This document shows positions 629 through 59,676 of a stretch of 64,000 nucleotides of DNA, in pieces. The position numbers and the translations under genes were made by a program. Origin of the DNA: a bacterium (lineage in GTDB: Bacteria; UBA10199; 2-02-FULL-44-16; JAAZCA01); assembly GCA_963674695.2 (NCBI GenBank), contig CAXXGI010000003.1, positions 384,001 through 448,000 on the forward strand. The letters run 5' to 3'. Position 1 is the stretch's first letter, and the number at the start of each line of letters is the position of its first letter. The notes under the pieces are model-generated. The model saw only the letters and a program-made list of their open reading frames with translations. It was not told the DNA's origin and searched no databases.

Positions 629-655
629 TTATCGGCAACGATCGCTGAATGTTGC
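629..655 (-). promoter_or_regulatory. GCAAC-N16-CGATAA promoter-like motif (site 1)
   Basis: Reverse strand reads GCAAC attcagcgatcgttgc CGATAA, ~43 nt before ATG 586. Confidence 0.7.
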
Positions 656-690
656 GCAGTAAAGATGGCTACATGACCACATAGGATCGT

Positions 691-1338
691 CTATTCGGAT
701 GGAAGTGTGGATGTTTTTATCTTCTCAGGTGCTTTCCGATACATCTGATACGTATTCACCCTGCCTTCCGCCTTCCACTTCATCGAAAAATAGGTCGGAT
801 AGGCGTCGGGCTTGTCGTGGACGATGACGTCGGGATAGGCGCTTGTCAGTTCCGCAATCGTCGCAGCGGATCGGCGTACATCCTCGGCATAGGCATGGTC
901 GTCCGTGGCGATCGAGACCGTTCCGTCGGGTTTCAGGATGCGTTGACATTCATGCAGGAGGTCGATGGAGACCGCGCGGTTCTTCTCGTGGCGATTCTTC
1001 GGCCAGGGGTCGGGAAAGAGGATGTGAATCTCGTCCACGCTGGCGTCCGGAAAGAAGCGGGGGAGTGCTGCGCGCGCATCGTCCTGGATGATGCGGACGT
1101 TGGCGAGCGCTCGTTTCTCCGCGCGCACGATCAGTTTGTCCACGCGCTTGCGCTTGATCTCGATGCCCACCACCGCAGCGTTGGGGTTGTGCTCGGCCAG
1201 GTGAAAGAGAAAGTCGCCGCGACCAGGCCCGACCTCGATGATCGTGCGGCGACCGATGAGCGCGGCACCCGCCGGATAGACGATGGGCGTTTTCTGCGTG
1301 CGCTGCGGACAGGCCGCGATGTAGGGTTTGGGCGTCAT
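691..1338 (-). CDS. trmB: tRNA (guanine-N7)-methyltransferase
   Basis: EVGPGRGDFL SAM motif, GIEI, FPDPWPKNRHEKNR and ATDD motifs; start trimmed to MTPKPY. Confidence 0.9.
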   Translation of the reverse strand: MTPKPYIAACPQRTQKTPIVYPAGAALIGRRTIIEVGPGRGDFLFHLAEHNPNAAVVGIEIKRKRVDKLIVRAEKRALANVRIIQDDARAALPRFFPDASVDEIHILFPDPWPKNRHEKNRAVSIDLLHECQRILKPDGTVSIATDDHAYAEDVRRSAATIAELTSAYPDVIVHDKPDAYPTYFSMKWKAEGRVNTYQMYRKAPEKIKTSTLPSE

Positions 1339-1428
1339 GGCCGCGCACCATAGCCTCATCGACCCCATGGTTGTCAACCCTTCAGCCACATTCGAGCTAG
1401 AGCAGTGCACAAGCACGGCACAGGCCTG

Positions 1429-1680
1429 GCGTTCACCTCCCGCGTCCTCCCTCCCTCTGTCGCTCAAGCTCAAGCATCGTCCGGGAAGGTGTTCTTCGGG
1501 GAGCGCCGCCTCGGCTCACACGCCGCCTCGACGGCTTTTCTTTTTTCGTCGCAGCATAAGAGGCTTCGATGGCGACGAAAAAAGATATCCCCTACAAACA
1601 CCTTCCCGGACGATGCTTTCGAAGGGCGGTTGAGGCTCCTCCGGGAGTGATGCCGCGGGAGGTGAACGCAAAAGGCAGTC
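1429..1680. repeat. ~250-nt nested-hairpin structured element, copy 1
   Basis: Nested IRs gcgttcacctcccgcg/cgcgggaggtgaacgc and catcgtccgggaaggtgtt/aacaccttcccggacgatg; homologs at ~7479 and ~25395. Confidence 0.75.
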
Positions 1681-1997
1681 AATAGCTTTGACTCAATTGT
1701 TATTTGTCTCTGCAGTTCGTTATTCATGAACGCATATTACTTGTCATGATCAATCCGTTTGGAACCTTTTGTCTTTGACGCCTCGCGGAGAGAGCCGTTT
1801 TGGCCTGCGAAGAGCTGCCGGTTGAGATCGAAGATCTCAATTCCGAATGATGTTTGAGCCCGCCAGAATATGATGTGCTTTTCACCTTCGGCGGGTGCGT
1901 TCATGAGGAAAGGCGGATCGAGTCAGATGCCAAAACGTGTGAGCGGAGCGAATGCGCAAAGACAAAAGGTTCCAAACGGTTTGATCATGCTCATTTC

Positions 1998-2777
1998 TTA
2001 TGTTGTTCCGCGTCGGTCGATGGTGAGGAGTGTGCCGCCGACGACGAGGATGGGGGCGAAGAGGAGGCTGAAGAAGGGGATGGCAAACCCCGCGCCTAAT
2101 CCTATGAGCGACCACTTGTGCTGCCAGCCGAAGCGGAAGCGATCGCCCGTCGGGACGATCCGCCGCCCGAGCGGCAGGTCGGCGAACGCGAATCCCAGGT
2201 CCCATGCGCCGAAGATGAGTGTCAGCACCACATAGATCACGCCGCCGATACCGGGGATGAGGTTGACCACGAGCAGGACGATCGGGATGGCGATGAGGAT
2301 CGCCGCCTTGATCGACTCCACCTTGATGATGCGCAGCATGTCCCCCAGGAATTTCGTCCACACAAACGGCGGGCCTTCTTTGCCCGTGACGATTATCTCC
2401 ACGCGCTCGGAGAGCGCATCGTTGAAGGGTGCGGCGATGATGAGGCCGGCGGCATAGCCGACGATGAGCAGCAGAATGAGCGCGACGAGCACGAGCAGGA
2501 GCTGAAACAGGACGTTGACGACCCAGAGCAGGGCATTCAGCGCCTGCCAGTACCAGGTGCTCGGGTTCTCGATCGTGAGATCCCCGACGTAAGAGACCAG
2601 CCACCCGTAGAGATCGCCATAATAATGAACGAAGCCCCAGATCATCACGAGGATGAGTGCCAGGTTGATGAGAAACGGAATGAGCGCCCACGGCCAGAGT
2701 CGCGGCTTGGAGAAGAGAAACGAAAATCCGCGAAAAAAATACCGCATGCCGTCGAAGAGGTCTTTGAAGGGAGTCAT
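1998..2777 (-). CDS. EI24/CysZ-like membrane protein, copy 1
   Basis: KPRLWPWALIP, IAAPFNDALSERVE and D.PL.RR motifs typical of CysZ/EI24; multiple TM segments. Confidence 0.85.
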   Translation of the reverse strand: MTPFKDLFDGMRYFFRGFSFLFSKPRLWPWALIPFLINLALILVMIWGFVHYYGDLYGWLVSYVGDLTIENPSTWYWQALNALLWVVNVLFQLLLVLVALILLLIVGYAAGLIIAAPFNDALSERVEIIVTGKEGPPFVWTKFLGDMLRIIKVESIKAAILIAIPIVLLVVNLIPGIGGVIYVVLTLIFGAWDLGFAFADLPLGRRIVPTGDRFRFGWQHKWSLIGLGAGFAIPFFSLLFAPILVVGGTLLTIDRRGTT

Positions 2778-2934
2778 GGTGGTGTTGTAGCGGAAGACGA
2801 GCATCTGGGCAAGGGATTGCGTGTAAGGGGGGATTCGTCAAATGAATCAGGCCAGCGTGTTGATGGACTCGAAATAACAGGAACGAATGTGGTTCCGAGC
2901 GTTCTCTTTTGAAAACGGTTTTTTTCTTCAAGAC

Positions 2935-2961
2935 GCAACTTTTTCCGAACATCCGCGATAA
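2935..2961 (+). promoter_or_regulatory. GCAAC-N16-CGATAA motif (site 2)
   Basis: GCAAC tttttccgaacatccg CGATAA, 43 nt before ATG 3005. Confidence 0.7.
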
Positions 2962-3004
2962 GAGATCGAACAGAAACAATAACCCTTTTTATGAGGAGGT
3001 CATC

Positions 3005-4420
3005 ATGTCGATTTTTTTCACCGTTTCCCAGATGGGACAGACCGCATCACAGGTTGCATCACAAGCCATGAACACGACCGCGTTCGATACGCTTCAGCCG
3101 GCGTTCGAAGCCGGCGACGGGGCGATGTTTGCGGACACCTATGTCGCACCGGAAGTGGCCAACGATACGATCATGTATTCTCAGAGCGCTAGTGATGGTC
3201 AGGGTAAGGGAGGTATTGGAGCGTTTGGTCTGGGCAGGAAAAAGAATGCCGTTGTCGTGAAAGATAAAGGGACCTCGCTACAGGCGACGCAGGGATTTGA
3301 TGTCGATTCCCTCAAGATCAGTGGTGAGCGAAGACTGGAGATTGAACAAAGCGCACGCGAGATCGTGGATATGATTCACGATAACCCGCAGTCTGTCCAT
3401 ATCCGAACAAATGTCGGAGCGATTGGATCGGATGCGATTGAGCAATCGAGAGCGGTGGCAAAACTGCTGCATCAAAGCGTGGGAAGCTTGATGAGCTCGC
3501 TTGGATCGGAGGGGAGGGTGCTCAAGACGCTGATGGAGGTGCGCAAGATGATGAAGACGGTTGAAGGTCCATGGTATGTGCGCGCGATGGATACGGTGTC
3601 GGAGCAGCTGCCCTTCGGCAGGGGGGCTGGAAAGCGGCTCGCCGTAAGATGGGAACAGTTGGGTGACACCCCGAATAACCTGGCAGAGGGATTGAAAGAT
3701 CAACGCACGGAGATGCAGCAGGGCATCGTTGCGCTACAGGACCTTTCGCGTATGGCAAAAGAGTGTGGACAAAAGGTCGATGAGACCGTTCTCGTCCTGC
3801 ATATGATCATCAGCGATCTGGAGAAGGGTAGCGAGAAGAGCGAACGATCACCCGATGAGAGTATGGCGCTTACGCATGTTCAGTCGCGACTGAAACGCCG
3901 GAAGACACAGATGATCCTCCAGCGTGAGCGGCTTGTCAAGTCTGTGATAACCAATCTTCTCCATATGGATGTCAATGATCGAACGATCGAGGAGATCGAA
4001 TTGACGATTGATGATATAAATATCGGTTTGCCGCAGAATCTGGCGCAGTTGGCTCTTCGGGAAAAGCAGAAGAAGGCGCAACAACTCACCGGTGCCGTGC
4101 GAGAGTTTACACGCGAGTTAGAGATGGCGACCGCCGAAGGAGTCTCCAGTGCCGTCGATGGGCAGCTCGCGCTTGAGCGCGATAGCGTTAAGGATTTTGA
4201 AAGCTTTGTGGCTACGCTGAAGATCGTCGATGTGGCGATGAAACGCTTTGAGAAGGGGACGTTTGAGAATCAGAAGCTGATGGACGACATGTTGAAAGGC
4301 GCTGAAGAGGTCATGGGCAATGCGGATAAGATGATCGCTGAATATCAGGAGGCCAGAAAGGTCATGGGGTTGGTCAAACCGCGCGCAGCGCTCGAGAAGA
4401 AAGAAGAGGGTGAGGGATGA
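3005..4420 (+). CDS. TelA/KlaB-like (toxic anion resistance-like) coiled-coil protein with low-complexity N-terminal extension, copy 1
   Basis: GAGGAGG RBS; helical heptad-rich body; LPFG.G..KR...RW pattern and LAQLALR..QKKAQ segment reminiscent of TelA; paralog at 10521. Confidence 0.55.
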   Translation: MSIFFTVSQMGQTASQVASQAMNTTAFDTLQPAFEAGDGAMFADTYVAPEVANDTIMYSQSASDGQGKGGIGAFGLGRKKNAVVVKDKGTSLQATQGFDVDSLKISGERRLEIEQSAREIVDMIHDNPQSVHIRTNVGAIGSDAIEQSRAVAKLLHQSVGSLMSSLGSEGRVLKTLMEVRKMMKTVEGPWYVRAMDTVSEQLPFGRGAGKRLAVRWEQLGDTPNNLAEGLKDQRTEMQQGIVALQDLSRMAKECGQKVDETVLVLHMIISDLEKGSEKSERSPDESMALTHVQSRLKRRKTQMILQRERLVKSVITNLLHMDVNDRTIEEIELTIDDINIGLPQNLAQLALREKQKKAQQLTGAVREFTRELEMATAEGVSSAVDGQLALERDSVKDFESFVATLKIVDVAMKRFEKGTFENQKLMDDMLKGAEEVMGNADKMIAEYQEARKVMGLVKPRAALEKKEEGEG

Positions 4421-6180
4421 GTGGTATCGCGCACTACCTGACGAACGCCTATACCTGGGCGCCGACGGTGCCGGATCTGTTCAATATGGATGCGGTGCAG
4501 ACCATGCCCATGGAGGCATTCGATCTGGGTGATGCGGGTGAGGTGCAGGTGGCTCCGTCCGTCGAGATGGCGGGCGATGCGTTTGTGGCGAAGCCGAAGC
4601 CCGTTGCGGTGGCGGTCAAGGAACGCCCGAACACGGCTTCGCTCGAGACGTTCTTCGCCTCGCGCGAACACCATGCGATGGTCGTGAGCACGGGCGACAG
4701 CCTTGCCCCGGCCGAAGATCCCGTGACGCTCAGCGTGACAAAAGCGGTCAAGGCGCCGAAGCCGTCGAAGGAGAAACCGCTCTGGACCTGGAATCCGGTG
4801 ACGATTCTGACGAAGGGTGGGTTCGTCTCTTCGGTTGCTTCGAAGGCCTTCCTTGTTGGGCTCTGGATTGAGGGGTGTTCGACGCTCAACGTCATCGTGC
4901 AGGATGATAGCCGGAGGGTGGAAGAGTCGCTTGAAGGGATGGCGGTAGGCGCTCTTTTGTTGGGAACGACCTATTGCTTTGCGAATGCATGGGAGCATTG
5001 CCCTGATTGGATGGAGGCATTGGGTCGACAGATGACGAAGGACCTGCGTGCACAGGAGGCGCTGGATGGAAAGCTTCGGAACGATGGTGTTGCGCGCCTC
5101 ATGCTCGACGAGGGTCTCTCCGATCGTGAATATCAACTCACGTTGAACGCGGTGGTCAAGCAGTGGAAGCAGCTCAATCCCGTCGAGCAGGCGGCATTTC
5201 TGCGCGCGGATGCGATCGCTGGTCATGGGGGCAGTGTAAAGCCTGTCGTGTTGCAGGGGAGCGAAACGCCCGTTTCGGTCGGTTTGGCGCTACAGCGTCT
5301 GGCCGATCGCTATAAGGGGATGGAACTCACGCATGCAGCGGAACAGGTGCAGACGTGGAACAAGGCGTATGAAGCGAAATGGCAGAATGCGACGCACGAA
5401 CGGATCTCCGTCACGAGCGGAAGGAAACGGGACCGGGCGGTGACGATTGCGGCACGGCTTGCCAACATACCGGCGGCGCGCAGGACGTTGCGCGGTGTTG
5501 AGCCGAAGGTCTATCGAGGGCTCGTTCGGGATGCCGCCAAACAGTGGAAACGCCTCAACCCGATGCAGCAGGGAATAGCGCATATCGCCGATCGACTGAT
5601 GGAAACTCCGAGTGCAAGCGGGTCCGGTATATCGCTGACGCCGAAATGGGAATCGATGGCTCCGGGGTTTGTCCTGGCGCATATGATCGAACGGTTGGGG
5701 ATGACCGATCTCGTGATAGGGAGCGATGCACATGATCCGGTGGTTTGGTATGGCCGGTATCAGCAGGCGTTGCAACAAGCACAGACACATCCGGTGAAGA
5801 CCAGCGTGCGATTTGATGCGAGGCGTTCGCGTGTAAATATCGATGCCTATCTCCTGCAGATGCCCGAAGTCAGGAGCGTTTTCGCAACGCTGACACCGGG
5901 GCAGTATCGTCGGGCGATCGGTGCGCTTGTAAAGGAATGGTACGCTATCAATGGCGTCAGGAAGGCGCACTATCGCACCCACGATATGCGTAAAGGTCTC
6001 GTGCCCGATGATGACGACGCCATCTCCCCCAGCTTCATCGCCCTGCGCTTCTGCGAACGCTATCTGGGCATGGGCGAGAAGGGCACGCGCGAGCGGTTCA
6101 AGCTCGATGCCAAGGTCCGCGAGGAGCTGGAGGCGTGGTATCGGTCGTATCGGGAGGCGTTGGAGGAGGCAGAGGGATGA
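4417..6180 (+). CDS. Family-X protein 1 (unknown function; hydrophobic segment + 3 internal repeats)
   Basis: ATGA overlap with upstream gene; W..LNPVEQ..ADx repeats; C-terminal RFCERYLGMGEK..FKLDAKVR..LEAWYRSY. Confidence 0.85.
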   Translation: MSGIAHYLTNAYTWAPTVPDLFNMDAVQTMPMEAFDLGDAGEVQVAPSVEMAGDAFVAKPKPVAVAVKERPNTASLETFFASREHHAMVVSTGDSLAPAEDPVTLSVTKAVKAPKPSKEKPLWTWNPVTILTKGGFVSSVASKAFLVGLWIEGCSTLNVIVQDDSRRVEESLEGMAVGALLLGTTYCFANAWEHCPDWMEALGRQMTKDLRAQEALDGKLRNDGVARLMLDEGLSDREYQLTLNAVVKQWKQLNPVEQAAFLRADAIAGHGGSVKPVVLQGSETPVSVGLALQRLADRYKGMELTHAAEQVQTWNKAYEAKWQNATHERISVTSGRKRDRAVTIAARLANIPAARRTLRGVEPKVYRGLVRDAAKQWKRLNPMQQGIAHIADRLMETPSASGSGISLTPKWESMAPGFVLAHMIERLGMTDLVIGSDAHDPVVWYGRYQQALQQAQTHPVKTSVRFDARRSRVNIDAYLLQMPEVRSVFATLTPGQYRRAIGALVKEWYAINGVRKAHYRTHDMRKGLVPDDDDAISPSFIALRFCERYLGMGEKGTRERFKLDAKVREELEAWYRSYREALEEAEG

Positions 6181-7451
6181 CCATACTGCTGAGCATTCCC
6201 ACAAGCCTGATGGCTCCAGCCCCGACGAATCTGTCGGGAGTGGATGATGGTGCGTGGGTGACGGCGATCGATCTGGCAGGTAACGATGAGACGGCGCTTG
6301 CCATCGTCGATACGACGGCGGTCTCACCGATGACGGTCTCATATGAAGCTCCCTCTCAGAATTTCCTTTCGCGTGCATGGAATCGCCTGCGCCAGGGAAC
6401 GACCGCTCGTCCGCGAACGACGCGCGATGGATGGATCACACCAGAGGGGACGACCTCACCGGCGCTTTCAGCCGCCTATACGCTGGCCGCGTATATCGAT
6501 CCCGACAATCGCCCGCGCCAGAGCTCGATTGCGGCGACGATGCTGCGTAGTGCGCGGCGTGCGGCGAACATCCGTTTGCAGAAAAGCATCCGTCCGCTCG
6601 ATGTCGCCGAGGTGGCGGCTGTTGGGTTTGAACTCGAAATGACCGATGCCTTGCTCGATGAGATCGGTGTGGCTCCCGAAGAAATCGCCGATTTTCGGGC
6701 CCTGGATCGAACGCGATCCCCTGGAACGAGCGGAACGCCGGTGGCCAAGGCGCGCTGGCTCGCCAAGCTCTCGCTCTATGCGCCGGAGCGCGAGGTGCAC
6801 TTCTGGCGCTGGGCTGAGCAGGCATCTGCACAGCTCGTTGCGCGCACGATCCTGCGCGCTTCCCTCCCCGACGAACCGCTGCAAGGGGCACTTAGCCTGG
6901 AAGGCGCGCTCATGCTCGCGGGGCGCGAGCGGGCGATGGCGGGGCGCGACCACATCGTGCGCATCGATCATGTGCTCGGTGCCGTCGCCGCGGCGGGCGG
7001 TGTTGACCCGTTTTCGTGGAAGGACCTGGCGAAGGTATCGGAGCTGCCGACGTCACTCACGAACGCCGCGCGCGCATGGACACAGACCGACGCCGCTCGG
7101 ATGAGGGATCAAGACAGCGCCTTTGCCTCCATCGAACTCGTCGAGCGCCTCTATGCGATGACCGAAGGCGTGCGTACGTTCGAGAAGCGCATGGGCCGCA
7201 GTCAGCGCGATAACCTGCGCGTGCACGCCTCGCGCGCACTCGACCGCGATACGATCAGCGATGCGGATCTCACGCTCCTGCTCTGGGAAATGCTCGGTCG
7301 CTCAAACGTTGATCCGAATGAAGCGGTGATCATGTACATCGAACGCATCGCCGATGGCATCTTCACCCTGCGCAACGATGCCAGCCGTCTCCACAACGAA
7401 GCGTTCAATCTCTACCGCCGATTCATTTTACCGCAGAAGACACTCCCCTAG
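6177..7451 (+). CDS. Family-Y protein 1 (unknown function, helical)
   Basis: ATGA-coupled start at 6177; paralog at 17393. Confidence 0.8.
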   Translation: MTILLSIPTSLMAPAPTNLSGVDDGAWVTAIDLAGNDETALAIVDTTAVSPMTVSYEAPSQNFLSRAWNRLRQGTTARPRTTRDGWITPEGTTSPALSAAYTLAAYIDPDNRPRQSSIAATMLRSARRAANIRLQKSIRPLDVAEVAAVGFELEMTDALLDEIGVAPEEIADFRALDRTRSPGTSGTPVAKARWLAKLSLYAPEREVHFWRWAEQASAQLVARTILRASLPDEPLQGALSLEGALMLAGRERAMAGRDHIVRIDHVLGAVAAAGGVDPFSWKDLAKVSELPTSLTNAARAWTQTDAARMRDQDSAFASIELVERLYAMTEGVRTFEKRMGRSQRDNLRVHASRALDRDTISDADLTLLLWEMLGRSNVDPNEAVIMYIERIADGIFTLRNDASRLHNEAFNLYRRFILPQKTLP

Positions 7452-10447: not shown

Positions 10448-10474
10448 GCAACATTTATCGCCCTATTGCGATAA
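10448..10474 (+). promoter_or_regulatory. GCAAC-N16-CGATAA motif (site 3)
   Basis: GCAAC atttatcgccctattg CGATAA, 46 nt before ATG 10521. Confidence 0.7.
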
Positions 10475-10520: not shown

Positions 10521-11909
10521 ATGTCGATCTTTTTCACACCTTCAACCATGGGGCAGGCGGCGGCGGGGCTTGCCAACACACCAGTATTTGATGCCATGCA
10601 GCCCGCATACGCAACCGGCTTCGGCGACGGTGTTGGCGATGCATTTGAAGCACAGCAGGCCGTCACCGATTCGACCGTCTTCTATCAGAAGGAGGGTGAT
10701 GGTGATTCGCTCGTCAAGCAATCGAAGGGCGCGGGGGGAAAGAGCATCGTGGCCTATGGAAACGAAGCGCCGGTTGTGACGCTTGCCAATGGGCGGGAGG
10801 CGGAGATCAAGGAAAAGGCGCGTGAGGTCGTCGCGACGATGAAGCAGGATCCTTCAAGCGTAAAGGTTCGATTAGCGATGAGCGAGGTGGGGATAGATGC
10901 GCTCACGAATACGGGAGAGGTGGCCGAACTCCTGCAGGAGAACGTCGGTTCGCTCATGCGCTCGCTTGGGAGCGAAGGAAAAGTCCTCAAACAGTTAGGC
11001 GAGGTGCAGTCGATGATGAAGGTCGTCGAGGGCCCCTGGTATGCGCGCGCGATGGATGCGGTCTCAGAGAAGCTTCCGTTCGGGATGGGCGCGGGCAAGC
11101 GCATGGCGATTCGCTGGGAACGATTGAAGGATGTACCGAAGAACGTGATGGCCGGGCTCAAAGAGCATCGCGCTGAGTTGGAAAACGGGATCGTGGCGTT
11201 CGATCATCTCACGACGGCGGCCAAGTCCTGCCAGGTTCGCGTGGAGGAGGCGATCTTCATGTTCGATGAAGTCATCGCGGCGCTCAAGGAGGAACGGGCG
11301 AACTACGGCGAAGGGACGCAGGAGCGTGCGGTCTGGGAGAACGTGATCAAGAACCTGGAGCGGCGCAAGACGCAGATGATCGTGCAGCGCGGACGCCTCA
11401 CGCAGGGGATTTTGGTCAACTTGGTCCACATCGATATCAACGAGGCCGGGATCAACGAGATCGAGATGACGCTGGATGATGTCGCGATCGGCATGCCGAT
11501 GGCGCTGGCGCAACTGGCGGGGCGCGCCCGGCAGAAGGCGGCGCAGCTGGTGACGGGGAAGACGCGGGCGTTCAACCGTCAGCTGAATACGGCGGTGATC
11601 GAGGGCGCGCGCAGCGGGGTCGAGGGCCAGCTTGAACTCGAGCGCGACGGAGCCAAGGATGTTGAGTCTGTTATCGCAAATATGAAACGCCTCGTGGAAA
11701 CGCTCGAGCGCTATCGAACCGGGAGGCTAGAGAATCATCAGTTGATCGGCAAGACGCTCAGGGCCGCCAAAGGCCTAAGGGGTGGGGCCGAAAAGGCTAT
11801 CGCGGAATTCCAGGAGACGCGCCGGGCGCTGGGGCTCGCCAATCCGCGCGCGGCGCTAGAAGAGAAGGACAAGAAGCTCAGCGATGGCATCACGGAGACG
11901 AACGGTTGA
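10521..11909 (+). CDS. TelA/KlaB-like coiled-coil protein, copy 2
   Basis: Paralog of 3005-4420 (shared MSIFFT, VGSLM.SLGSEG.VLK, VEGPWY.RAMD.VSE.LPFG, RRKTQMI.QR). Confidence 0.55.
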   Translation: MSIFFTPSTMGQAAAGLANTPVFDAMQPAYATGFGDGVGDAFEAQQAVTDSTVFYQKEGDGDSLVKQSKGAGGKSIVAYGNEAPVVTLANGREAEIKEKAREVVATMKQDPSSVKVRLAMSEVGIDALTNTGEVAELLQENVGSLMRSLGSEGKVLKQLGEVQSMMKVVEGPWYARAMDAVSEKLPFGMGAGKRMAIRWERLKDVPKNVMAGLKEHRAELENGIVAFDHLTTAAKSCQVRVEEAIFMFDEVIAALKEERANYGEGTQERAVWENVIKNLERRKTQMIVQRGRLTQGILVNLVHIDINEAGINEIEMTLDDVAIGMPMALAQLAGRARQKAAQLVTGKTRAFNRQLNTAVIEGARSGVEGQLELERDGAKDVESVIANMKRLVETLERYRTGRLENHQLIGKTLRAAKGLRGGAEKAIAEFQETRRALGLANPRAALEEKDKKLSDGITETNG

Positions 11910-11944
11910 AGAGGTGCTGCGTTCGTAAACAGGAGGTATAGGGC

Positions 11945-13690
11945 ATGGGCGGAATAGTGACGACAGTGGGAATGGGCTATACGTTGATGCCGATGTTGCC
12001 GTTATCATTCGATGCGGATGGTACAGATGCCGACGACGTGAATGCGACGCAGACGATGGCCTTTGCCGCAGCGGGAGATTCCTTTGAAGAGGAGGCGTCG
12101 CCCGCCGCGGTTGCCGTGATGGAGAGGCCCGTGAATACCCCGCTCGGATCGATCTTTCATGCGTTGCCGCCGGAGTTTCACGCGATGGTGGTGGGGAAAG
12201 GGGATCCACCTGCTTCGGCGTTGGAGCCTATAGCGATGACCGTCAACACGTCCTCGGTGCCAATAGATAAAAGGAAAAAACTAGCGCTGATCGTGAGGCC
12301 GTGGAATCACTTGAGTGTGGGTTTTATTGCTAATGTGTTTTCATTATGGGGATGTGCCATTTTTTCTAGTGTAATACCGAAGGTGCTCAATCTTCATTTA
12401 TCTGCGGAAGATCAGGTTGCGCTATTAGGCGGAAGTTTTGCAGCAGCTCAGGGGTTGCTGATGATCACTGGAACAATCGTGTATCATGGCGGTGATTGGC
12501 TACAGCTTATCGAGAGAACCTGTTTTTCCAGTAGCAGGCAGCAAATGACTTCAATCAAAGACGTCCTTGCACAACCCATCGCCAAACAGGTCCTCGGCAG
12601 CGAGATCTCCCAGGAGGATTATCGAAGTGCGTTGTCCGCAAATGTGAGCGAGTGGAACAAACTGAACCCGGTCGAGCAGTCTGCCTATCTGCGCGCCGAT
12701 CGGCGAAGTGGTCTCGATGATCAAGAGAAACCCATCGTTTTGCAATCACGCGCCACCCCGGTTTCAGTCGGCTTTACGTTGCAGCGACTCCTCGAACGCT
12801 TTCACGGCCTGGGTGGTGTGGGTGCGCAGCGGGAGATGGATGGGGCGAGTCCAGAGTTGAGCAAGTGGCATGGGGACTATCTCGCCAAATTGGAGAATGG
12901 GGGCGAAGATACCACGAAGTTTCGGACGGATAAAAGTCACATCCCCGCAATGGCGATCGGTGCAAAACTTGCCGCCATCCCCGCTGCGCGACGTGCGCTC
13001 AGAGGTGTTCCCAGAAAGCAATATGAGGGGATGGTCAAGGCGGTCATCAAGGAGTGGAAAACGCTCAATCCTGTCCAGCGCGGAACGCTGCACATCGCCG
13101 ATCGTCTCATGGGGATTGCAACAGAGGAGCATGGCATCGACATTTCACCGAGCTGGTGGACGATCTCTACCGGGTTCGCGTTGATGCGTATGATTGGGCG
13201 ATTGGGTCTGGCGGATGTTGTAGCCGAGGGAGCCTCAAAAGGGCCGGGGGTATGGTATCAGCGCTATAGTGCATATCTGGCCGAGGCGTCGACTCATCCC
13301 CTCGACCTATCGGTGAAGAAGGGTATGGATTCAAAGTCAGTCATTTCCGCCCACCTCTTGCAGATTCCGGAAGTGCGGAGCGCACTCTTGAATTTATCGA
13401 TGAAGGAGTACCGAGCAGTCATAGACAGGATCACTTCCGAGTGGAGGAAGACAAACGAAGTATCACAAATAGATCATTTGGAGACCGACAAGAAAAACGG
13501 CCTTCTCTCCGACATCGACCAAGAGGGCCTCATCTCCCCCGGTTACATCGCCCGCCTTTTCTGCGAGCGATATCTCGGTATGGGTGAGAAGGCTGTGCGC
13601 GAGCGGTTCAAACTCGATGCCAAGGTGCGTGAGAAGCTGGAGGCGTGGTATCGGTCGTATCGGAAGGCGTTGGATGGCGTGAGCGTGTGA
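11945..13690 (+). CDS. Family-X protein 2
   Basis: AGGAGG RBS; same repeat and C-terminal motifs. Confidence 0.85.
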   Translation: MGGIVTTVGMGYTLMPMLPLSFDADGTDADDVNATQTMAFAAAGDSFEEEASPAAVAVMERPVNTPLGSIFHALPPEFHAMVVGKGDPPASALEPIAMTVNTSSVPIDKRKKLALIVRPWNHLSVGFIANVFSLWGCAIFSSVIPKVLNLHLSAEDQVALLGGSFAAAQGLLMITGTIVYHGGDWLQLIERTCFSSSRQQMTSIKDVLAQPIAKQVLGSEISQEDYRSALSANVSEWNKLNPVEQSAYLRADRRSGLDDQEKPIVLQSRATPVSVGFTLQRLLERFHGLGGVGAQREMDGASPELSKWHGDYLAKLENGGEDTTKFRTDKSHIPAMAIGAKLAAIPAARRALRGVPRKQYEGMVKAVIKEWKTLNPVQRGTLHIADRLMGIATEEHGIDISPSWWTISTGFALMRMIGRLGLADVVAEGASKGPGVWYQRYSAYLAEASTHPLDLSVKKGMDSKSVISAHLLQIPEVRSALLNLSMKEYRAVIDRITSEWRKTNEVSQIDHLETDKKNGLLSDIDQEGLISPGYIARLFCERYLGMGEKAVRERFKLDAKVREKLEAWYRSYRKALDGVSV

Positions 13691-13711
13691 TTGGTTCAAG
13701 GAGGATAAAGG

Positions 13712-15508
13712 ATGAGTGGATTGGGAAATATTGTGGGATTGAACAACTTCGTGCCGAGCATGGCATTGGCGACGGCGGGCGGCGGTCTGGGGCTCGGTGA
13801 CGGCGTTGCGTCCGCCGCGAGCGACGATCCGATCGACATGACCTCCCCGATGGCGTTTGCTGCGGATGGTGATGCGTTTGAGGCGGGAGATCCAGGCACG
13901 GTTGCAGTGGTGAATAGGCCCGCGAATAATACCTCCCTCGCATCCCTCTTCGCCCCGTGTGCACATCACGCGATGGTGCGGAATGATAGTGCTATTGAGA
14001 TAAACGTTAGTAGGCTGCAAGAGCCTCAAAAACCAAAACGAAAAGGCAAAGATCGTTTGTGGCATTTCTATCCGGGTAAAGCTGTGGGAGAGTATGTTTA
14101 CAGAAATGATGAGATTGGCCCCGTTGATTGGTTAGTTCCAGTAGATATGAATGGTACAGGATTAGCGCTCACTACTATGTGGGTTGTTGGAGCCGCTGGC
14201 ATGGTCGCCATTGCGGCCTTCGCCACGAGTGGTATTGAATTGATCTTTTACGAGGCCGGTGCGTGGCTCTTCAATAAGACCTGTGGGAACGCAGTTGCTC
14301 ATGGCAGAGAATGGATGAAAATTGCAAGACACACGTTAACACAGGGCACATTCGGACAAGAGAACTCCTCAATCAAAGACGTCCTTGCACAACCCATCGC
14401 CAAACAGGCCATCGGCAGCGAGATCTCCCAGACAGAGTATCGAAGTGCGCTCTTTGCGAATGTTCGCGAATGGAACAAACTGAACCCGGTCGAGCAGGCG
14501 GCCTTCCTGCGCGCCGATCGGCGGAGCGGTTTTGACTATCGAAAGGAACCCATCGTTCTGCAATCACGCGGCACCCCGGTTTCAGTCGGTTTCAATCTAC
14601 AGCGACTCCTCGAGCGCTTTCACGGCCTGGGTGGCGTGGGTGCGCAGCAGGAGATGGAAGGGGCGAGTCAAGAGCTGAGCAAGTGGCATAGGGACTATCG
14701 CGCCAAATTGGAGAATGGGGGCGAAGATACCACGAAGTTTCGGACGGATAAAAGTCACATCCCCGCAATGGCGATCGGTGCAAAACTTGCCGCCATCCCC
14801 GCTGCGCGACGTGCGCTCAGAGGTGTTCCCAGAAAGCAATATGAGGGGATGGTCAAGGCGGTCATCAAGGAGTGGAAAACGCTCAATCCTGTCCAGCGCG
14901 GAACGCTGCACATCGCCGATCGTCTCATGGGGATTGCAACAGAGGAGCATGGCATCGACATTTCACCGAGCTGGTGGACGATCTCTACCGGGTTCGCGTT
15001 GATGCGTATGATTGGGCGATTGGGTCTGGCGGATGTTGTAGCCGAGGGAGCCTCAAAAGGGCCGGGGGTATGGTATCAGCGCTATAGTGCATATCTGGCC
15101 GAGGCGTCGACTCATCCCCTCGACCTATCGGTGAAGAAGGGTATGGATTCAAAGTCAGTCATTTCCGCCCACCTCTTGCAGATTCCGGAAGTGCGGAGCG
15201 CACTCTTGAATTTATCGATGAAGGAGTACCGAGCAGTCATAGACAGGATCACTTCCGAGTGGAGGAAGACAAACGAAGTATCACAAATAGATCATTTGGA
15301 GACCGACAAGAAAAACGGCCTTCTCTCCGACATTCAGGGTGCAGGCCTCATCTCCCCCGGCTTCATCGCCCGCCGCTTTTGTGAGCGCTATCTCGGCATG
15401 GGTGAGAAGGCTGTGCGCGAGCGGTTCAAACTCGATGCCAAGGTGCGTGAGAAGCTGGAGGCGTGGTATCGGTCGTATCTCGATGCGCTCGATGGCGTGA
15501 GCGTGTGA
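13712..15508 (+). CDS. Family-X protein 3
   Basis: AGGAGG RBS; C-terminal half nearly identical to X2. Confidence 0.85.
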   Translation: MSGLGNIVGLNNFVPSMALATAGGGLGLGDGVASAASDDPIDMTSPMAFAADGDAFEAGDPGTVAVVNRPANNTSLASLFAPCAHHAMVRNDSAIEINVSRLQEPQKPKRKGKDRLWHFYPGKAVGEYVYRNDEIGPVDWLVPVDMNGTGLALTTMWVVGAAGMVAIAAFATSGIELIFYEAGAWLFNKTCGNAVAHGREWMKIARHTLTQGTFGQENSSIKDVLAQPIAKQAIGSEISQTEYRSALFANVREWNKLNPVEQAAFLRADRRSGFDYRKEPIVLQSRGTPVSVGFNLQRLLERFHGLGGVGAQQEMEGASQELSKWHRDYRAKLENGGEDTTKFRTDKSHIPAMAIGAKLAAIPAARRALRGVPRKQYEGMVKAVIKEWKTLNPVQRGTLHIADRLMGIATEEHGIDISPSWWTISTGFALMRMIGRLGLADVVAEGASKGPGVWYQRYSAYLAEASTHPLDLSVKKGMDSKSVISAHLLQIPEVRSALLNLSMKEYRAVIDRITSEWRKTNEVSQIDHLETDKKNGLLSDIQGAGLISPGFIARRFCERYLGMGEKAVRERFKLDAKVREKLEAWYRSYLDALDGVSV

Positions 15509-15530
15509 TCGGATACAAGGAGAACGAAGG

Positions 15531-17396
15531 ATGAGCGGACTGGGAAATATTGTGGGACTGAATAACTTTGTGCCGAGCATGGCATTGGCGACGGCGGGTG
15601 GTGGTGTGGATTTCGGCGAGGAGGTCGTCTCCGGCGCGAGCGACGGTCTGGGTGTCGACATGCAATCCTCGATGGCGTTCGCGGCTGAAGGCGATGCGTT
15701 TGAGAACGGAGAACAGCCCGACACGCTTACAGTAGCGGAGAGGCCTGCTGGTTCCTCACGCGAATCCCTCTTCGCGCCGTCGGAGTCTCACGAGATGGTG
15801 GCGAAGAAACAAGGTCAAAAGGTTTCGTTGCCGGATTCGTCCCGGGATGCTGATGAATCGGCACCAAGCGCGTTGCAGATCGATATTGCCGTTCCTCAGA
15901 TTCTTCCATCGAAGAAACGGTTGTGGCATTTCTATCCGCTCGAAGGTGCAGGGCATCGTGTGTATTTGAAGGACAAGAAGGGAGCGTATCTCTATGATGA
16001 TAATGGATGGGTAAAACATCGCACAACCGATACCGGTTATTGGCTCTTGACGATGTGGTGGGCGGGGTTGGGAGGCATGATTGCGGCTCCCATTATTTCG
16101 GTTGCAGTATTCAATACTGGTCTTGCCGGGACGGTTGCGGTCGAGTCGGGTATGTGGCTCTTCAATAAGTTCTGCGGAAATGCCGTGGTGCATGGCGGTG
16201 AATGGATGCGTGTCCTTTTTCCGAGGTCCTTCATTTCGAAACAGATGAAGGGGGCGACACAAGCGCTTCTGAAAGAGGAATTGATGGGGAGCGTCGTGGG
16301 AGATGACGTCGGTCAGCGAACGTATCATGACCTGCAGAAGCAATACATCCGTGAATGGAGCGAGAAAAATCCGGTCGAGCAGGCGGTCTTTCTCCGAGCC
16401 GATCGTATCAAGGCGAACGAAAAATCAGACACGCCGATCCTGTTGTGTCAGAGCCGATCGCCCGTCTCCGTTGGATTTCTGATGTGCCGATTCATCGAGC
16501 AGATGTATGGTATGGGCGGGATAGCGCAGGACGTCATCTCCCGGAAGCCGTCGTCGACGATCGATGACTGGCATGCTCAATATAAGAACATGCTCGACAA
16601 CGAGAGCCAACGACAGGTGAAATTCTCCACGGAGGATACGCATGTTCCGGAGATGGTGATCGGCGCCAAGCTCGCGGCGATTCCTGCAGCACGTCGCGCT
16701 CTCATGGGGGTGTCGAAAAAACAGTATCGGAGGATGCTCGGGAGGATCATCGGGGAGTGGGCTAGGTTCAATCCGATATCCTGTGGCGTCTTTCATGCGG
16801 TGGATCACCAAATGAACGTTGTGCCGGAAACCGATCCGGTGATGGTGTCATCGCACTGGTTGGGCATGTCTCCCGGATTTGTCCTGATGCGTCTGATCGA
16901 ACGTTTGGGGATAGAGGATGTGGTGACGACTGGCGATGCAAACGATCCGGCGGTCTGGCATGCGGCGTACACGAAGATGGGAATGGCCAAGTTGCAGAAG
17001 CGGGCGTTGACGATCAGCGTGAACAAAGATGCCGACGGAAACGATGCCATTGCGCTCGGATTGATGCGGGAACCTCGAATACGAGCGGCCTTGATGCATT
17101 TTTCCAAGGCCGAATATCGCGGTATGATAAAAAAAATTGTCGGTGAATGGAATGGTGTAAATCTCTTTTCACGGAGACGCCATGTGAAGACGGATATCGG
17201 TCAAGGGCTGTTGCCTCCGGATAGTGATGGCAATGCCATCTCCCCCGGCTTCATCGCCCGGCGTTTCTGCGAGCGCTATCTCGGCATGGGCGAGAAGGGC
17301 ACGCGCGAGCAGTTCAAATTCGACGCCGAGGTGCGCAACAAGCTGGAGGCCTGGTATCGGTCGTATATGAGGGCGCTGGAGGGAGGGGCAGGATGA
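15531..17396 (+). CDS. Family-X protein 4
   Basis: N-terminus shared with X3; same repeat and C-terminal motifs. Confidence 0.85.
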   Translation: MSGLGNIVGLNNFVPSMALATAGGGVDFGEEVVSGASDGLGVDMQSSMAFAAEGDAFENGEQPDTLTVAERPAGSSRESLFAPSESHEMVAKKQGQKVSLPDSSRDADESAPSALQIDIAVPQILPSKKRLWHFYPLEGAGHRVYLKDKKGAYLYDDNGWVKHRTTDTGYWLLTMWWAGLGGMIAAPIISVAVFNTGLAGTVAVESGMWLFNKFCGNAVVHGGEWMRVLFPRSFISKQMKGATQALLKEELMGSVVGDDVGQRTYHDLQKQYIREWSEKNPVEQAVFLRADRIKANEKSDTPILLCQSRSPVSVGFLMCRFIEQMYGMGGIAQDVISRKPSSTIDDWHAQYKNMLDNESQRQVKFSTEDTHVPEMVIGAKLAAIPAARRALMGVSKKQYRRMLGRIIGEWARFNPISCGVFHAVDHQMNVVPETDPVMVSSHWLGMSPGFVLMRLIERLGIEDVVTTGDANDPAVWHAAYTKMGMAKLQKRALTISVNKDADGNDAIALGLMREPRIRAALMHFSKAEYRGMIKKIVGEWNGVNLFSRRRHVKTDIGQGLLPPDSDGNAISPGFIARRFCERYLGMGEKGTREQFKFDAEVRNKLEAWYRSYMRALEGGAG

Positions 17397-18834: not shown

Positions 18835-18911
18835 TACGATAATGATTGCACGAAAGGACGTTCTCATTCCCCTCACTGTTCTCTTTTGAGAACGGTTTTT
18901 TTCTGAAAGAC

Positions 18912-18938
18912 GCAACTTTTTTTGCAGCGCTGCGATAA
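18912..18938 (+). promoter_or_regulatory. GCAAC-N16-CGATAA motif (site 4)
   Basis: GCAAC tttttttgcagcgctg CGATAA; upstream ~35 nt homologous to the site-2 region. Confidence 0.7.
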
Positions 18939-51961: not shown

Positions 51962-52606
51962 TTAAACCGTGTCTTCGATGCGGATTTTCTTTTTTGGCTT
52001 TGATTTTTGCTCTCGATGATCCCCTTCGGGTTGCTTCGTCTCCTTCTGTTTCTCATGCGTTTTGATCACATCGAGAAATTCGGAGACGCGCTTGGCCGTG
52101 GCGGGGTGATAGGTGAGCAGGGCCTGGTCGAAACGAAGTCCCTCCATCGTTTCGAAGTCGAAGATGCAGTCGATCCGAGGGGCGAACAGTGAGCGTTCAT
52201 CATCAAGCGGAATTTCCAGGAGCGAGAGATCGCATGACTTTGCGCACATCGCTCCCCTCAGGAGGAAGAGTTCATCCACTGTTGTCTTCCCATCGGCATC
52301 TCCAGCGATATCGGCAGCGATGACCTCCATGCAGCTGCGGTCATCCGTGATCAGGGTGCCGTCATCCTCGTAGAGCCCATTCCAGTAGGTGAGGTTGAAG
52401 TTGGAATCGGGATTTTCCCGCAGCATCCGTTTGACGACGACATATGCCGTCAGATAGCCGTCGGTGACATCACCTTCATCCTCGATGATCGTCTTTTCGA
52501 CGAGCTGTTCGAAGGCTTCGAGTTCGGTGCGATCCAGTTTTCCATCGATCTTTTGGCCAATGAGTTGGTCGATCTGAAACTGGTCAGAGATGGAGAGCGT
52601 TCGCAT
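51962..52606 (-). CDS. Acidic hypothetical protein with EF-hand-like loops and basic tail
   Basis: AAGGA RBS; IDGKLDRTEL and DADGKTTVDEL. Confidence 0.65.
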   Translation of the reverse strand: MRTLSISDQFQIDQLIGQKIDGKLDRTELEAFEQLVEKTIIEDEGDVTDGYLTAYVVVKRMLRENPDSNFNLTYWNGLYEDDGTLITDDRSCMEVIAADIAGDADGKTTVDELFLLRGAMCAKSCDLSLLEIPLDDERSLFAPRIDCIFDFETMEGLRFDQALLTYHPATAKRVSEFLDVIKTHEKQKETKQPEGDHREQKSKPKKKIRIEDTV

Positions 52607-52670: not shown

Positions 52671-52697
52671 TTATCGCCGTTTGCGGCGAGAAGTTGC
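52671..52697 (-). promoter_or_regulatory. GCAAC-N16-CGATAA motif (site 5), overlapping the rnd 3' end
   Basis: Reverse strand reads GCAAC ttctcgccgcaaacgg CGATAA. Confidence 0.65.
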
Positions 52698-55952: not shown

Positions 55953-55979
55953 GCAACTTCTGTTACCATCTGTCGATAA
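55953..55979 (+). promoter_or_regulatory. GCAAC-N16-CGATAA motif (site 6)
   Basis: GCAAC ttctgttaccatctgt CGATAA, 42 nt before ATG 56022. Confidence 0.7.
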
Positions 55980-56021
55980 TGGATATGTTGGGGGAGAACA
56001 ACATAATGAAGGAGGTCTCCT

Positions 56022-56453
56022 ATGGGTGGATTAAACTTGAATCGTTTTTATGACGATATCCATTTCGACCGGGACTGGCGGTATATGAAGAATGGGGAGC
56101 ATATCGCGGCGGCTGCGGAGATCGTGAAGGATGCGACGATCGCTTCTCTTTTCTACAATGATGCCGATGGCATCTGTGAGTCGGAGAGCATCGCGCAACA
56201 GAGCCGTGTTGATTCCGAAGATTGTTTTTCGATGGAACCGAATGCCTCGTTTGTCGATGGGACCGTCGGTCATGTCGAATCAGATGGGAGGATCGTTGGA
56301 GCAATGCGTTATCAGGAAATATCCACCGAGGCAATGGAGACTATTCATAACCGATTATTGAAAGCATTCGAGGTGCTTGATAAGCTTCGTCAGGATGAGC
56401 CATCTCTACTCAGATCTAAGCTCTTTCAGCCGAGACCGCCGGTTCTCGAATAA
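56022..56453 (+). CDS. Hypothetical protein
   Basis: AAGGAGG RBS; promoter motif upstream. Confidence 0.7.
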   Translation: MGGLNLNRFYDDIHFDRDWRYMKNGEHIAAAAEIVKDATIASLFYNDADGICESESIAQQSRVDSEDCFSMEPNASFVDGTVGHVESDGRIVGAMRYQEISTEAMETIHNRLLKAFEVLDKLRQDEPSLLRSKLFQPRPPVLE

Positions 56454-57073: not shown

Positions 57074-57076
57074 TCC

Positions 57077-58498: not shown

Positions 58499-58520
58499 AG
58501 GATTCTCCCTTATGTCTGTA

Positions 58521-59120
58521 TTAGTCGGATGATTTTCGTCCCTTTGGTTCCTGGAAGGCGAGGCTCGAAAGGATCTCCTGGAATTCCGGGGTGTTCTTTT
58601 CAAATGCCTTTGGAGTCCCGAAGTAGTCGATCATATAGGCATAGCCGTAGGCGGGGGTGACGATCGTGATGGTCAGGAGCGGGCGGTTCAGATAGCGCGT
58701 GCGAATAGCGGCATAGCGGCCGACGGCAATCTCCTCATCGGTGAAGGGTCCCAGATGTGCGGTTGTGGTGGCATTTTGTTGTGAGCGTTGCCAGGCGAGC
58801 CAATCGGCAGCCGTGCGAACCTTCGAAAAGGAGGGGATCGTGTTCTCCAGCACACGCACATCCTCCACGCGCAGTTTCACGACGGCACCCTTCGGGTTTT
58901 CGTTGGGGGTGAAGACGACATCGTCGCGCGTGGTGGCAAACCGTACGGCTGGGGAGCCCGACTGTTTGTCCAGCTGGCCGATCCACCACTTTTTCGGATA
59001 ACGCAGGCTGTAGCCGAAATGCTTGTTCTTGTATTGCTTCGTGCTGCCGGCGAAAACGGTGGGGGAAAATGCCATCGCGGTCAAGGCGAAGGCGACACAG
59101 AGGATGAGGATTCGTTTCAT
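58521..59120 (-). CDS. Exported protein, PsbP/Mog1-like
   Basis: Signal peptide; YKNKHFGYSLRYPKKW; FQEILSSL.F. Confidence 0.6.
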   Translation of the reverse strand: MKRILILCVAFALTAMAFSPTVFAGSTKQYKNKHFGYSLRYPKKWWIGQLDKQSGSPAVRFATTRDDVVFTPNENPKGAVVKLRVEDVRVLENTIPSFSKVRTAADWLAWQRSQQNATTTAHLGPFTDEEIAVGRYAAIRTRYLNRPLLTITIVTPAYGYAYMIDYFGTPKAFEKNTPEFQEILSSLAFQEPKGRKSSD

Positions 59121-59213
59121 GGTTGGCGATTGTGCGTGGATGCGTCGTCGATGTCAACAGGCGCAAAAAAAGCCAGGCCGTTTGGCCTGGCTCTTTGGGA
59201 ATGCAGAAAATGG

Positions 59214-59615
59214 CTATACGGAGATCGTTTCAACCGAGGCGACGAACTCCGGATCCTTGGCCAGGCTTTGCAAGAGGTTGTCCATTGCCTTGAGCATCGG
59301 AGAGGCGGCGGTGATCGGTGCACCGATCGCGATGAGCATATCGAGGGCCAGATCGGCCATGCCCTCAGCCTCGGCTTTGATATCAGCATGCACCGGCTGA
59401 GCCGTGAGAATCGATTTCGACGCGACCTTTGGTCCCGTCATCCGGGAGAGCGATGCCGCATCGCCAGCGGAACTTTCGCGCTTCGGGGTATCCTCTTTCG
59501 GGGCCTCTTCACGCGGTTGGGGAGCTTCCGGAACCTTTTTATGCTCCACCTCTTTGGGGAGAAAGGGCGTCGGAAGGCCGAGTGTCGGATCCATATCAAG
59601 ACCGCCTGCGAACAT
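59214..59615 (-). CDS. Hypothetical low-complexity protein
   Basis: AAGGAGG RBS; promoter motif upstream. Confidence 0.7.
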   Translation of the reverse strand: MFAGGLDMDPTLGLPTPFLPKEVEHKKVPEAPQPREEAPKEDTPKRESSAGDAASLSRMTGPKVASKSILTAQPVHADIKAEAEGMADLALDMLIAIGAPITAASPMLKAMDNLLQSLAKDPEFVASVETISV

Positions 59616-59649
59616 AGTGCCTCCTTATTGATGATATCTCCTATCTCTA

Positions 59650-59676
59650 TTATCGGCGGATTTCTGCGGAAGTTGC
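59650..59676 (-). promoter_or_regulatory. GCAAC-N16-CGATAA motif (site 7)
   Basis: Reverse strand reads GCAAC ttccgcagaaatccgc CGATAA. Confidence 0.7.

Follow-up and report, generated by a model that had tools for sequence, protein, structure and literature searches.

A sigma-28-type promoter motif with an altered -35 element, repeated before orphan genes and type III secretion operons in a genome of the phylum UBA10199

The window examined here, a 64,000-nt stretch of a 100%-complete genome of the phylum UBA10199 (designated G000), contains seven copies of the sequence GCAAC-N16-CGATAA, against 0.02 expected and a maximum of one in any of 100 shuffles. They lie where a first-pass annotation had placed them: sites 1 (629..655), 5 (52671..52697), and 7 (59650..59676) on the minus strand, and sites 2 (2935..2961), 3 (10448..10474), 4 (18912..18938), and 6 (55953..55979) on the plus strand. 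The gap is 16 nt in all seven, and the distance to a co-oriented start was correctly given as 34-64 nt (42, 43, 46, 53, 64, 42, and 34 nt downstream for sites 1 to 7). Written as octamers, site 1 is GCAACATT-n11-GCCGATAA. Matrix scores are 30, 30, 25, 31, 21, 24, and 24 bits in the same order, site 5 being the lowest, and a matrix scan of the window yielded no site beyond these. An RNase D-like gene contains site 5 at its 3′ end, and its stop codon is the TAA of CGATAA. An Rfam search of the window matched only a tRNA.

Site 1 is followed by an orphan ORF of 1327 aa, whose 5′ part (1..586, minus strand) is in the window and whose remainder lies beyond it; its N-terminus is rich in Pro, Ala, and Thr, with no signal peptide, and its first 900 aa have no Pfam match. 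Site 2 precedes a probable operon of X1 (3005..4420, plus strand) followed by X2, a member of an orphan paralogue family, and X3 (4417..7451, plus strand). X1 combines a low-complexity N-terminus with a TelA-like coiled-coil domain (ESM Atlas 0.96 to TelA clusters; no Pfam match) and is 43% identical to X4, which by this likeness may also be TelA-like. Two further probable operons on the plus strand have sites 3 and 4 upstream: X4, X5, X6, X7 (orphan family), and X8 (10521..18658), and X9, X10, and X11 with a 167-aa orphan (18992..24568). The orphan family that includes X9, X10, and X11 has seven paralogues with 32-79% identity and no further copy in the genome; an ESM Atlas search with X9 gave no usable match. 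X3 and X8 are 84% identical. The remaining sites precede a 214-aa orphan gene (site 5; 51962..52606, minus strand), a 143-aa orphan ORF with a low coding score from the gene caller (site 6; 56022..56453, plus strand), and a 133-aa orphan gene (site 7; 59214..59615, minus strand), after which a signal-peptide gene and glutamine synthetase come in the same orientation.

Flanking homology between sites 2 and 4, as first reported, is real, but it consists mostly of a palindromic box, GTTCTC-N4-GAGAAC, 18 nt before GCAAC. The copy before site 2 (2901..2916) reads GTTCTC-N4-GAAAAC and that before site 4 (18878..18893) is a perfect GTTCTC-TTTT-GAGAAC, each ending 18 nt before its site. The box is also found at the same distance from GCAAC before unrelated genes on other contigs, and is therefore a second element rather than merely a trace of duplication; the copy at 2901..2916 is a probable activator site.

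Genome-wide there are some 200 sites, chiefly intergenic and co-oriented with a following gene. The motif is both above background (195 matrix sites of at least 18 bits vs. one in a shuffle) and oriented: 159 of 201 sites have a co-oriented start within 100 nt, and 14 have one on the opposite strand, compared to 17% for random intergenic positions. By our own gene calls about 16% of the genome is intergenic, as are 130 of 140 regex-defined sites. The gap, described from the window as fixed at 16 nt, is less strict elsewhere (54 strict sites with N16, 20 with N17, and 22 with N18; 0-5 for every other gap within 8-25); spacer sequence is free, with its length held to 16-18. In octamers the motif is GCAACTTT-n11-GCCGATAA, which is sigma-28 geometry and -10 with an altered -35, and the octamer spacer is 11 nt at 150 of 201 sites, 12 at 25, 13 at 25, and 14 at one. 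Assignment of CGATAA as a sigma-28 -10 box stands, the octamer and spacing being those of the E. coli FliA class-3 flagellar promoter, TAAAGTTT-n11-GCCGATAA, in the passages seen of PMC2859248. The -10 logo, gcCGATAa, matches GCCGATAA, while the -35 octamer TAAAGTTT is replaced by GCAACTTT, alike at five of eight positions; in G000 the canonical TAAA pattern does not exceed background (1 vs. 1). A pyrimidine-purine step at positions 7-8 past the -10 (purine in 160 of 201), together with 22 start codons at 6-11 nt past it and none at 12-14, fits a predicted transcription start 7-8 nt past the -10. As judged from its form and placement, the repeated motif is a promoter.

Among seven region-2 matches in the genome, one is a FliA-like sigma factor (G000 C3:8530-9399), and its gene sits within a non-flagellar type III secretion system (T3SS) cluster. 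For its regions 2-4 the top NCBIfam and PDB matches are FliA/WhiG, with WhiG and FliA the nearest solved relatives, and it scores 132.2 bits on TIGR02479, below the 189.6 cut-off. In the region-4.2 helix, the one that reads the -35, SKSW replaces ESRV; SKSW[TV][SC]R is found in 18 of 18 aligned sigmas, with SKSW invariant, and the solved WhiG and FliA have ESRVSQ. The search for a FliA-like factor and inspection of its region 4.2, proposed with the first annotation, thus end at a single candidate, and the suggested variant sigma-28 with a dispersed regulon is well supported. Flagellated members of the phylum have a second FliA with E[SA]R (10/10), which does not belong to the SKSW clade (support 100/100). 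Among 13 flagellin genes of these relatives, a TAAA-type promoter precedes one, and no GCAAC site lies within 330 nt of any, but the TAAA pattern is clearly over control in one genome only (G087), so the orthogonality of the two sigmas is weakly tested. The SKSW sigma very probably binds the motif. Titles and abstract openings contained no description of the motif, the sigma, or this phylum's secretion system; the sigma may already be annotated in the sigma-28 cryo-EM, 2022 Cell Reports T3SS*, or 2005 SigF papers or their supplements.

The export route had been envisaged as flagellar or T3SS-like. The second part agrees with the position of the sigma gene; the first does not, since neither a flagellin nor a rod domain was found in G000. 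The export core and ATPase complex of a Myxo-type non-flagellar T3SS are present: SctR, SctN, and SctV pass their own cut-offs (SctV falling below that for FlhA), SctS passes both its own and that for FliQ, SctJ, SctL, and SctQ are best matches below cut-off, and SctT was recognized by inspection. No T3SS-linked secretin was seen in G000; its three secretins are in clusters read, by inspecting neighbors, as T2SS, type IV pilus, and Tad. In relatives, T3SS genes follow the sigma in 71/71 loci, and the motif precedes T3SS operons in 63/63 cases checked (a needle-like gene in 26/26 loci and the sigma operon in 37/37). In G000 itself, sctV and the SycD-chaperone block showed no site upstream. The C-terminus encoded by the cluster head gene is weakly SctF-like (Pfam E 0.017-0.043, two myxobacterial orthologues; TIGR02105 match in 2/22; PDB 7y6c_F E 0.017), and modeling the needle-like protein from its sequence alone gave a structure of too low quality to search with (pLDDT 58.8). 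In the T3SS promoters the spacer is 13 nt, two above canonical; no shared activator box was seen upstream of the two, nor a sigma-54 site before the first cluster gene in any of 35 loci.

Across the phylum, the motif is enriched in 93/93 genomes, the sigma was found in 91/93, and motif position is kept before orthologous genes; in most of 68 genomes of other phyla it is not enriched. The same sigma clade occurs in T3SS clusters of myxobacteria. In a sample of one myxobacterial order, all 34 sigma-positive genomes have 3-28 sites, whereas 68 of 87 sigma-negative ones have none and five have at least three (3-7 sites; two of these genomes are 86-89% complete). These counts are not independent, the genomes being kin, and most sigma-positive ones are larger. 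In G298, G505, and G379, the T3SS cluster has motif sites at its head. Less regular cases are G130, with sigma and SctJ on one contig yet no N16 and one N18 site; G256, with four N16 sites vs. one control; and G192, with the sigma but no T3SS gene on its 16-kb contig.

In the window, the seven first genes are all without a Pfam match, in keeping with the claim that only orphans are marked, but genome-wide this was overstated. First genes without a Pfam match number 132/181, compared to 17/80 control genes; exceptions include sites before smc and a DEAD helicase, and one inside dnaG. Nor is there support for all marked genes being export substrates, as had been thought plausible: 38/191 first genes (~20%, by a hydrophobicity heuristic) have a signal-peptide-like N-terminus, the T3SS operons are themselves in the regulon, and some sites are at housekeeping genes. 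The signal-less first genes have T3SS-like N-termini (Pro 1.48×, Ser 1.36×, and Lys 0.65× background), and 1% of them vs. 10% have two or more membrane helices. [DSN]xF[EQV] within residues 9-110 is in 44/138 vs. 139/1304 background proteins, a pattern picked after looking; in a blind scan of ~29,000 gapped 3-mers, no N-terminal motif survived correction. Signal-less marked proteins in G000 include SLT, M23, amidase-like, and OmpA-domain proteins, and in myxobacteria signal-less cell-wall hydrolases, among them a LysM-SLT protein and a PG-binding amidase, which are candidate prey-dissolving enzymes. We consider it reasonably likely that the T3SS exports much of the signal-less set and, to a similar degree, that these proteins act on another bacterium; the SET-domain and serpin proteins among the candidate cargo could indicate a eukaryotic host.

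The sigma and promoter could be rightly identified and the regulon still be a general life-stage program (attack, dispersal, or dormancy), with the T3SS one member and most orphans not cargo. The model would be the FliA attack-phase regulon of Bdellovibrio bacteriovorus, in which passages of PMC3627812 report TTAAG-N16-CCGATA at 92 of 140 promoters: there, too, in a delta-lineage organism, a FliA-family factor has broadened to a global program of surface proteins, proteases, and unknown genes. Regulon size in G000 (~200 units, vs. ~10 strict sites in Myxococcaceae-like genomes), the signal-peptide fraction, and marked GGDEF, PilZ, kinase, and glycogen-enzyme genes all suit such a program. The T3SS-like N-termini, scarcity of membrane helices, and, with the reservation already given, the [DSN]xF[EQV] excess do not, and signal-less cell-wall hydrolases require an export route. 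The Bdellovibrio factor is a flagellar FliA with a canonical -35, whereas the one here belongs to a separate clade in a T3SS cluster and coexists with a flagellar FliA in flagellated relatives. We regard this reading, which is partly compatible with the preferred one, as possible though rather unlikely.

That the motif is read by something else (an RpoH-like sigma, an ECF sigma, RpoD, or a two-site DNA-binding regulator), the SKSW sigma co-occurring merely as a target, is improbable. The genome does encode an RpoH-like sigma, three short ECF-sized sigmas, and a marked protein with a sigma-70 C-terminus; the sigma operon is motif-marked, so co-occurrence is expected either way, and G130 is a mismatch. 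However, the -10 and octamer spacing are those of sigma-28, the changed residues are in the -35-reading helix, and the 68 siteless sigma-negative myxobacterial genomes must have housekeeping sigmas. Despite its high copy number and the flanks common to sites 2 and 4, the motif is most improbably a dispersed repeat, mobile-element end, or uptake sequence, an origin rejected as contradicted by its orientation and by a spacer free in sequence and held in length, and opposed by its phylum-wide position before orthologues and lack of enrichment in most genomes of other phyla.

The preferred reading, which we think likely, is that a FliA-family sigma, freed from flagellar control and serving a non-flagellar T3SS, uses the motif as its promoter. 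The sigma retains the -10-reading residues of FliA, so that the -10 stays GCCGATAA; its region-4.2 helix has changed from (V)SESRVSQ to LSKSWTSR, and the -35 from TAAAGTTT to GCAACTTT. It would turn on the operon that holds its own gene and the T3SS core, the operon headed by the needle-like subunit, and some 200 dispersed transcription units, together making up an attack program. Most first genes are signal-less orphans with Pro/Ser/Thr-rich N-termini, probably T3SS cargo and in part aimed at bacterial cell walls; about one-fifth look like Sec-exported surface proteins. As in E. coli, a FliA/WhiG homologue would drive a filament-type T3SS substrate; the -35, the SKSW helix, the lack of a flagellum, and the common 12- and 13-nt spacers set the present system apart. 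HrpL of plant-pathogen T3SSs is likewise a dedicated cluster-encoded sigma, whose hrp box is found at apparatus operons and at effector genes dispersed elsewhere, and has been used to find the latter; the layout here is similar, but HrpL belongs to the ECF sigmas and its box is another one.

The closest known apparatus is the “needleless” T3SS* of Myxococcus xanthus (MXAN_2434-2464), with a homologous gene set, similar in order in G298 and G505, and no cluster secretin seen. The passages available name no sigma factor or promoter for it (PMC3459982, PMC12075869, PMC10433427, PMC12428579), report that it is needed for prey lysis, with localized peptidoglycan degradation (PMC12428579), and call its effectors unknown as of 2023 (PMC10433427); in the portions seen of the PMC8844925 supplements, none of the T3SS* locus tags looked up has a row, their TSS table covering selected genes. 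The system described here differs in apparently extending through the phylum, in its far larger regulon, and in having at its head a gene that is weakly SctF-like. Taken together, and tentatively, since we would put it somewhat short of even, the whole phylum may live by T3SS attack on bacteria under one rewired FliA; the same box may list the myxobacterial T3SS* prey-lysis cargo (a peptidoglycan amidase, a LysM lytic transglycosylase, a lipase-like protein, and a Gly/Ala-rich translocator-like protein); and, as it marks an SctF-like subunit beside its chaperone, the “needleless” system may build a filament after all.

These observations would connect, in more than one phylum, a secretion system with a sigma clade and its promoter, and they predict a lifestyle for a phylum with, to our knowledge, no cultured member. 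They would also provide a sequence handle on the M. xanthus T3SS* effectors, a box scan giving a short candidate list in a tractable laboratory organism. More generally, this may be a natural case of -35 specificity altered through a few residues of one helix, and it suggests how a flagellar regulator persisted while the flagellar export apparatus became a secretion system.

The first-pass annotation placed seven GCAAC-N16-CGATAA sites in the window, and all seven are there as described (0.02 expected by chance), each 34-64 nt before a co-oriented ORF with no Pfam hit; the fifth also takes in the stop codon of an RNase D-like gene. The flanking homology it noted between the second and fourth sites is borne out as a palindromic box (GTTCTC-N4-GAGAAC) that ends 18 nt upstream of GCAAC. 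Among 201 sites in the whole genome (below), 8 have this box at the same distance with at most 4 mismatches (6 of them with at most 2), and two more have it, with one mismatch, 29 nt before GCAAC, one helical turn further. As to the marked operons, X1 resembles TelA, and the seven paralogues of the X family have no match that explains them. A CysZ/EI24 gene, present in two nearly identical copies (window 1998-2804 and 9508-10287), precedes the X operons; the copies, separated by an IS110 transposase (8039-9211), are a segmental duplication.

The genome (G000; 3.03 Mb in 3 contigs, C1-C3; 100% complete) has 54 strict matches with a gap of 16 nt, 20 with 17 and 22 with 18, other gaps giving 0-5. 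A matrix scan found 195 sites of at least 18 bits, vs. one in a shuffled sequence; with six regex sites these form the working set of 201. By a simple gene caller, 130/140 regex seed sites are intergenic, vs. ~16% of the genome. At 159 sites a called gene start on the same strand is no more than 100 nt away, and at 14 sites one on the opposite strand; the baseline for random intergenic positions is 17%. The octamer consensus is GCAACTTT-n11-GCCGATAA. That of Escherichia coli sigma-28 is TAAAGTTT-n11-GCCGATAA (PMC2859248): spacer and second octamer are alike, but the first differs. A purine is found at position 8 after the −10 in 160/201 sites, and 22 marked genes start 6-11 nt after the −10 but none at 12-14 nt, which together fit a transcription start near position 8, with some messages leaderless. 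An ORF lies within 170 nt of 191/201 sites; strong sites that have none (C1:836871, C1:840825, C1:427884, C2:466736) are candidates for small RNA genes.

A search for the FliA-like sigma factor that the motif suggested turned up one among seven region-2 hits in G000, at C3:8530-9399. It scores 132 bits against TIGR02479, below cut-off; among proteins of solved structure, WhiG and FliA are its best-matching relatives. G000 showed neither flagellin nor a rod domain; the sigma gene lies instead in a type III secretion (T3SS) cluster with SctJ-, FliG-, SctL-, SctN-, FliJ-, FliM-, SctQ-, FliO-, SctR-, and SctS-like genes and SycD-like chaperone genes, while SctV, above the SctV and below the FlhA cut-off, is encoded elsewhere. 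Counting only those of 102 related loci that are long enough (the loci are kin, and some overlap), T3SS genes lie downstream of sigma in 71/71, and the motif is upstream of the cluster's head gene in 26/26 and of the sigma operon in 37/37, with a gap of 18 nt at all but two of these sites. The region-2 residues D..R..W.PR are the same as in FliA. The region-4.2 helix is the reader of the −35; here it has LSKSWTSRLH, vs. ESRVSQ[IL]H, and SKSW is invariant in 18/18 aligned sequences.

On the opposite strand, the cluster is directly flanked by a sigma-54 activator gene and one for a Ser/Thr kinase (C3:25067-29246), possibly its upstream control. Gene pairs for TIGR02436-like four-helix bundles form two insertions within it (C3:6717-7472 and C3:18475-19285), with a further pair outside (C2:896623-897380). 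At locus L009, the stretches between T3SS genes hold extended tandem repeats of short units, with a heptamer array in several of them and a hexamer repeated more than 20 times before sctS.

Within the phylum, sigma is found in 91/93 genomes and the N16 motif in all 93 (12-115 sites; reversed control 0-11). Relatives are labeled Deltaproteobacteria RIFCSP, CG11, or ADurb.Bin270, which we take to belong to GTDB UBA10199. Flagellin is present in 12/93; all ten of the flagellated genomes looked at encode a second FliA, which bears ESR in nine and EAR in one and falls outside a 27-row clade (support 100/100) of SKSW proteins plus one long-branch row that lacks the motif.

Motif enrichment is absent from most of 68 genomes of other phyla. 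Of the 150 top-ranking profile hits, 113 have S[KR]SW, including proteins named from Hyalangium, Stigmatella, and a Myxococcales bin, and 6/308 non-phylum genomes have a match. G298 and G505 are taken as Myxococcaceae-like because their sigma is 79-81% identical to the Stigmatella protein. In both it lies within a homologous T3SS cluster, with motif sites (four and two) at the cluster head and before a chaperone-SctV block; G379 has a site at the cluster head, and G256 a variant site after sigma. Among 121 genomes of G298's order, all 34 with sigma have 3-28 sites; of the 87 without, 5 have at least three and 68 none (in its family, seven sigma-negative genomes have 0, 1, 0, 0, 4, 0, and 0). 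Counting against the association, G130 has sigma and SctJ without motif enrichment, G192 has no T3SS gene on sigma's contig, and G419 has no site in the stretch examined.

That only orphan genes are marked holds for most: 132/181 marked G000 genes had no Pfam hit (cut-off 1e-5, first 900 residues), vs. 17/80 controls out of 120 sampled (p 5e-15). It fails for smc, for a DEAD helicase, and for a site that lies within dnaG. By heuristic prediction, 38/191 marked first genes encode a signal peptide and 1% have at least two membrane helices. N-termini of the signal-less products are enriched in Pro, Ser, Thr, and Cys and depleted in Lys and Glu; their domains include SLT, M23, amidase-like, OmpA, glycogen enzymes, SET, serpin, subtilase, kinase, and sigma-70 C-terminus. 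In G298 and G505, with ORFs chosen by hand, 20/28 sites have a plausible one downstream; all 15 outside the cluster are signal-less, including a LysM-SLT protein and a PG-binding amidase, and several pair up as alike across the two genomes. The N-terminal pattern [DSN]xF[EQV], picked after inspecting the data, occurs in 9 of these 15 and in 44/138 signal-less marked G000 proteins vs. 139/1304 background; a blind scan of N-termini did not recover it.

Further observations concern marked G000 proteins. Cys-rich N-termini (at least two Cys in 60 residues) occur in 34/125 signal-less marked proteins vs. 209/1304 background (e.g., C1:971930, C2:82879, C2:91439, C3:205738). A near-leaderless 923-aa protein with C-terminal sigma-70 regions 2, 3, and 4 (C3:147921-150692; L113:101-2872) could be an injected sigma factor. 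Proteins with alpha-amylase (C1:298212-300548), 4-alpha-glucanotransferase (C1:363458-364984), and glycogen-synthase (C3:784255-785979) domains, all without signal peptide, are reminiscent of secreted chlamydial glycogen enzymes. Giant signal-less proteins of 2240-3763 aa (C1:242655-265015, C3:265865-272587) match no Pfam family over the first 900 residues.

The head gene's product matches SctF weakly at its C-terminus. The next gene encodes a TPR protein that weakly matches CdsG; the gene after sigma matches SctI in 9/21 homologues, and another matches FliK/SctP. Complex prediction for the head and TPR proteins gave 0.43 vs. 0.01 for the best control (contact agreement 71%, partner pLDDT at least 57), weak support for a pairing: 116/157 solved and 2/215 mismatched pairs pass the same mark, but just 18 solved pairs and both mismatches lie at this level. 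Since a like complex is already solved, the pass may come from the model's memory. An SctF-like needle subunit at the cluster head stays a lead, because Abby and Rocha report SctF absent from Myxo systems (PMC3459982). In G298 (C57 ~149700-151000; L254-L256), the cluster holds three near-identical 73-aa genes, of which at least two have a motif site of their own; their C-terminus aligns with that of the needle-like head protein.

The “needleless” T3SS* of Myxococcus xanthus is needed for prey lysis (PMC12075869, PMC12428579), with effectors unknown as of PMC10433427. Our literature search, with incomplete coverage of key papers, found no account of the motif or of this sigma's role. The sigma does not qualify as a flagellar FliA. 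In regulatory logic the system would be like HrpL. In regulon scale it would be like Bdellovibrio FliA (PMC3627812). Most likely, a FliA-derived sigma with an altered recognition helix turns on the T3SS operons that are its own and, scattered through the genome, a large set of genes for cargo and surface proteins; a subset of the promoters would also bear an activator box.
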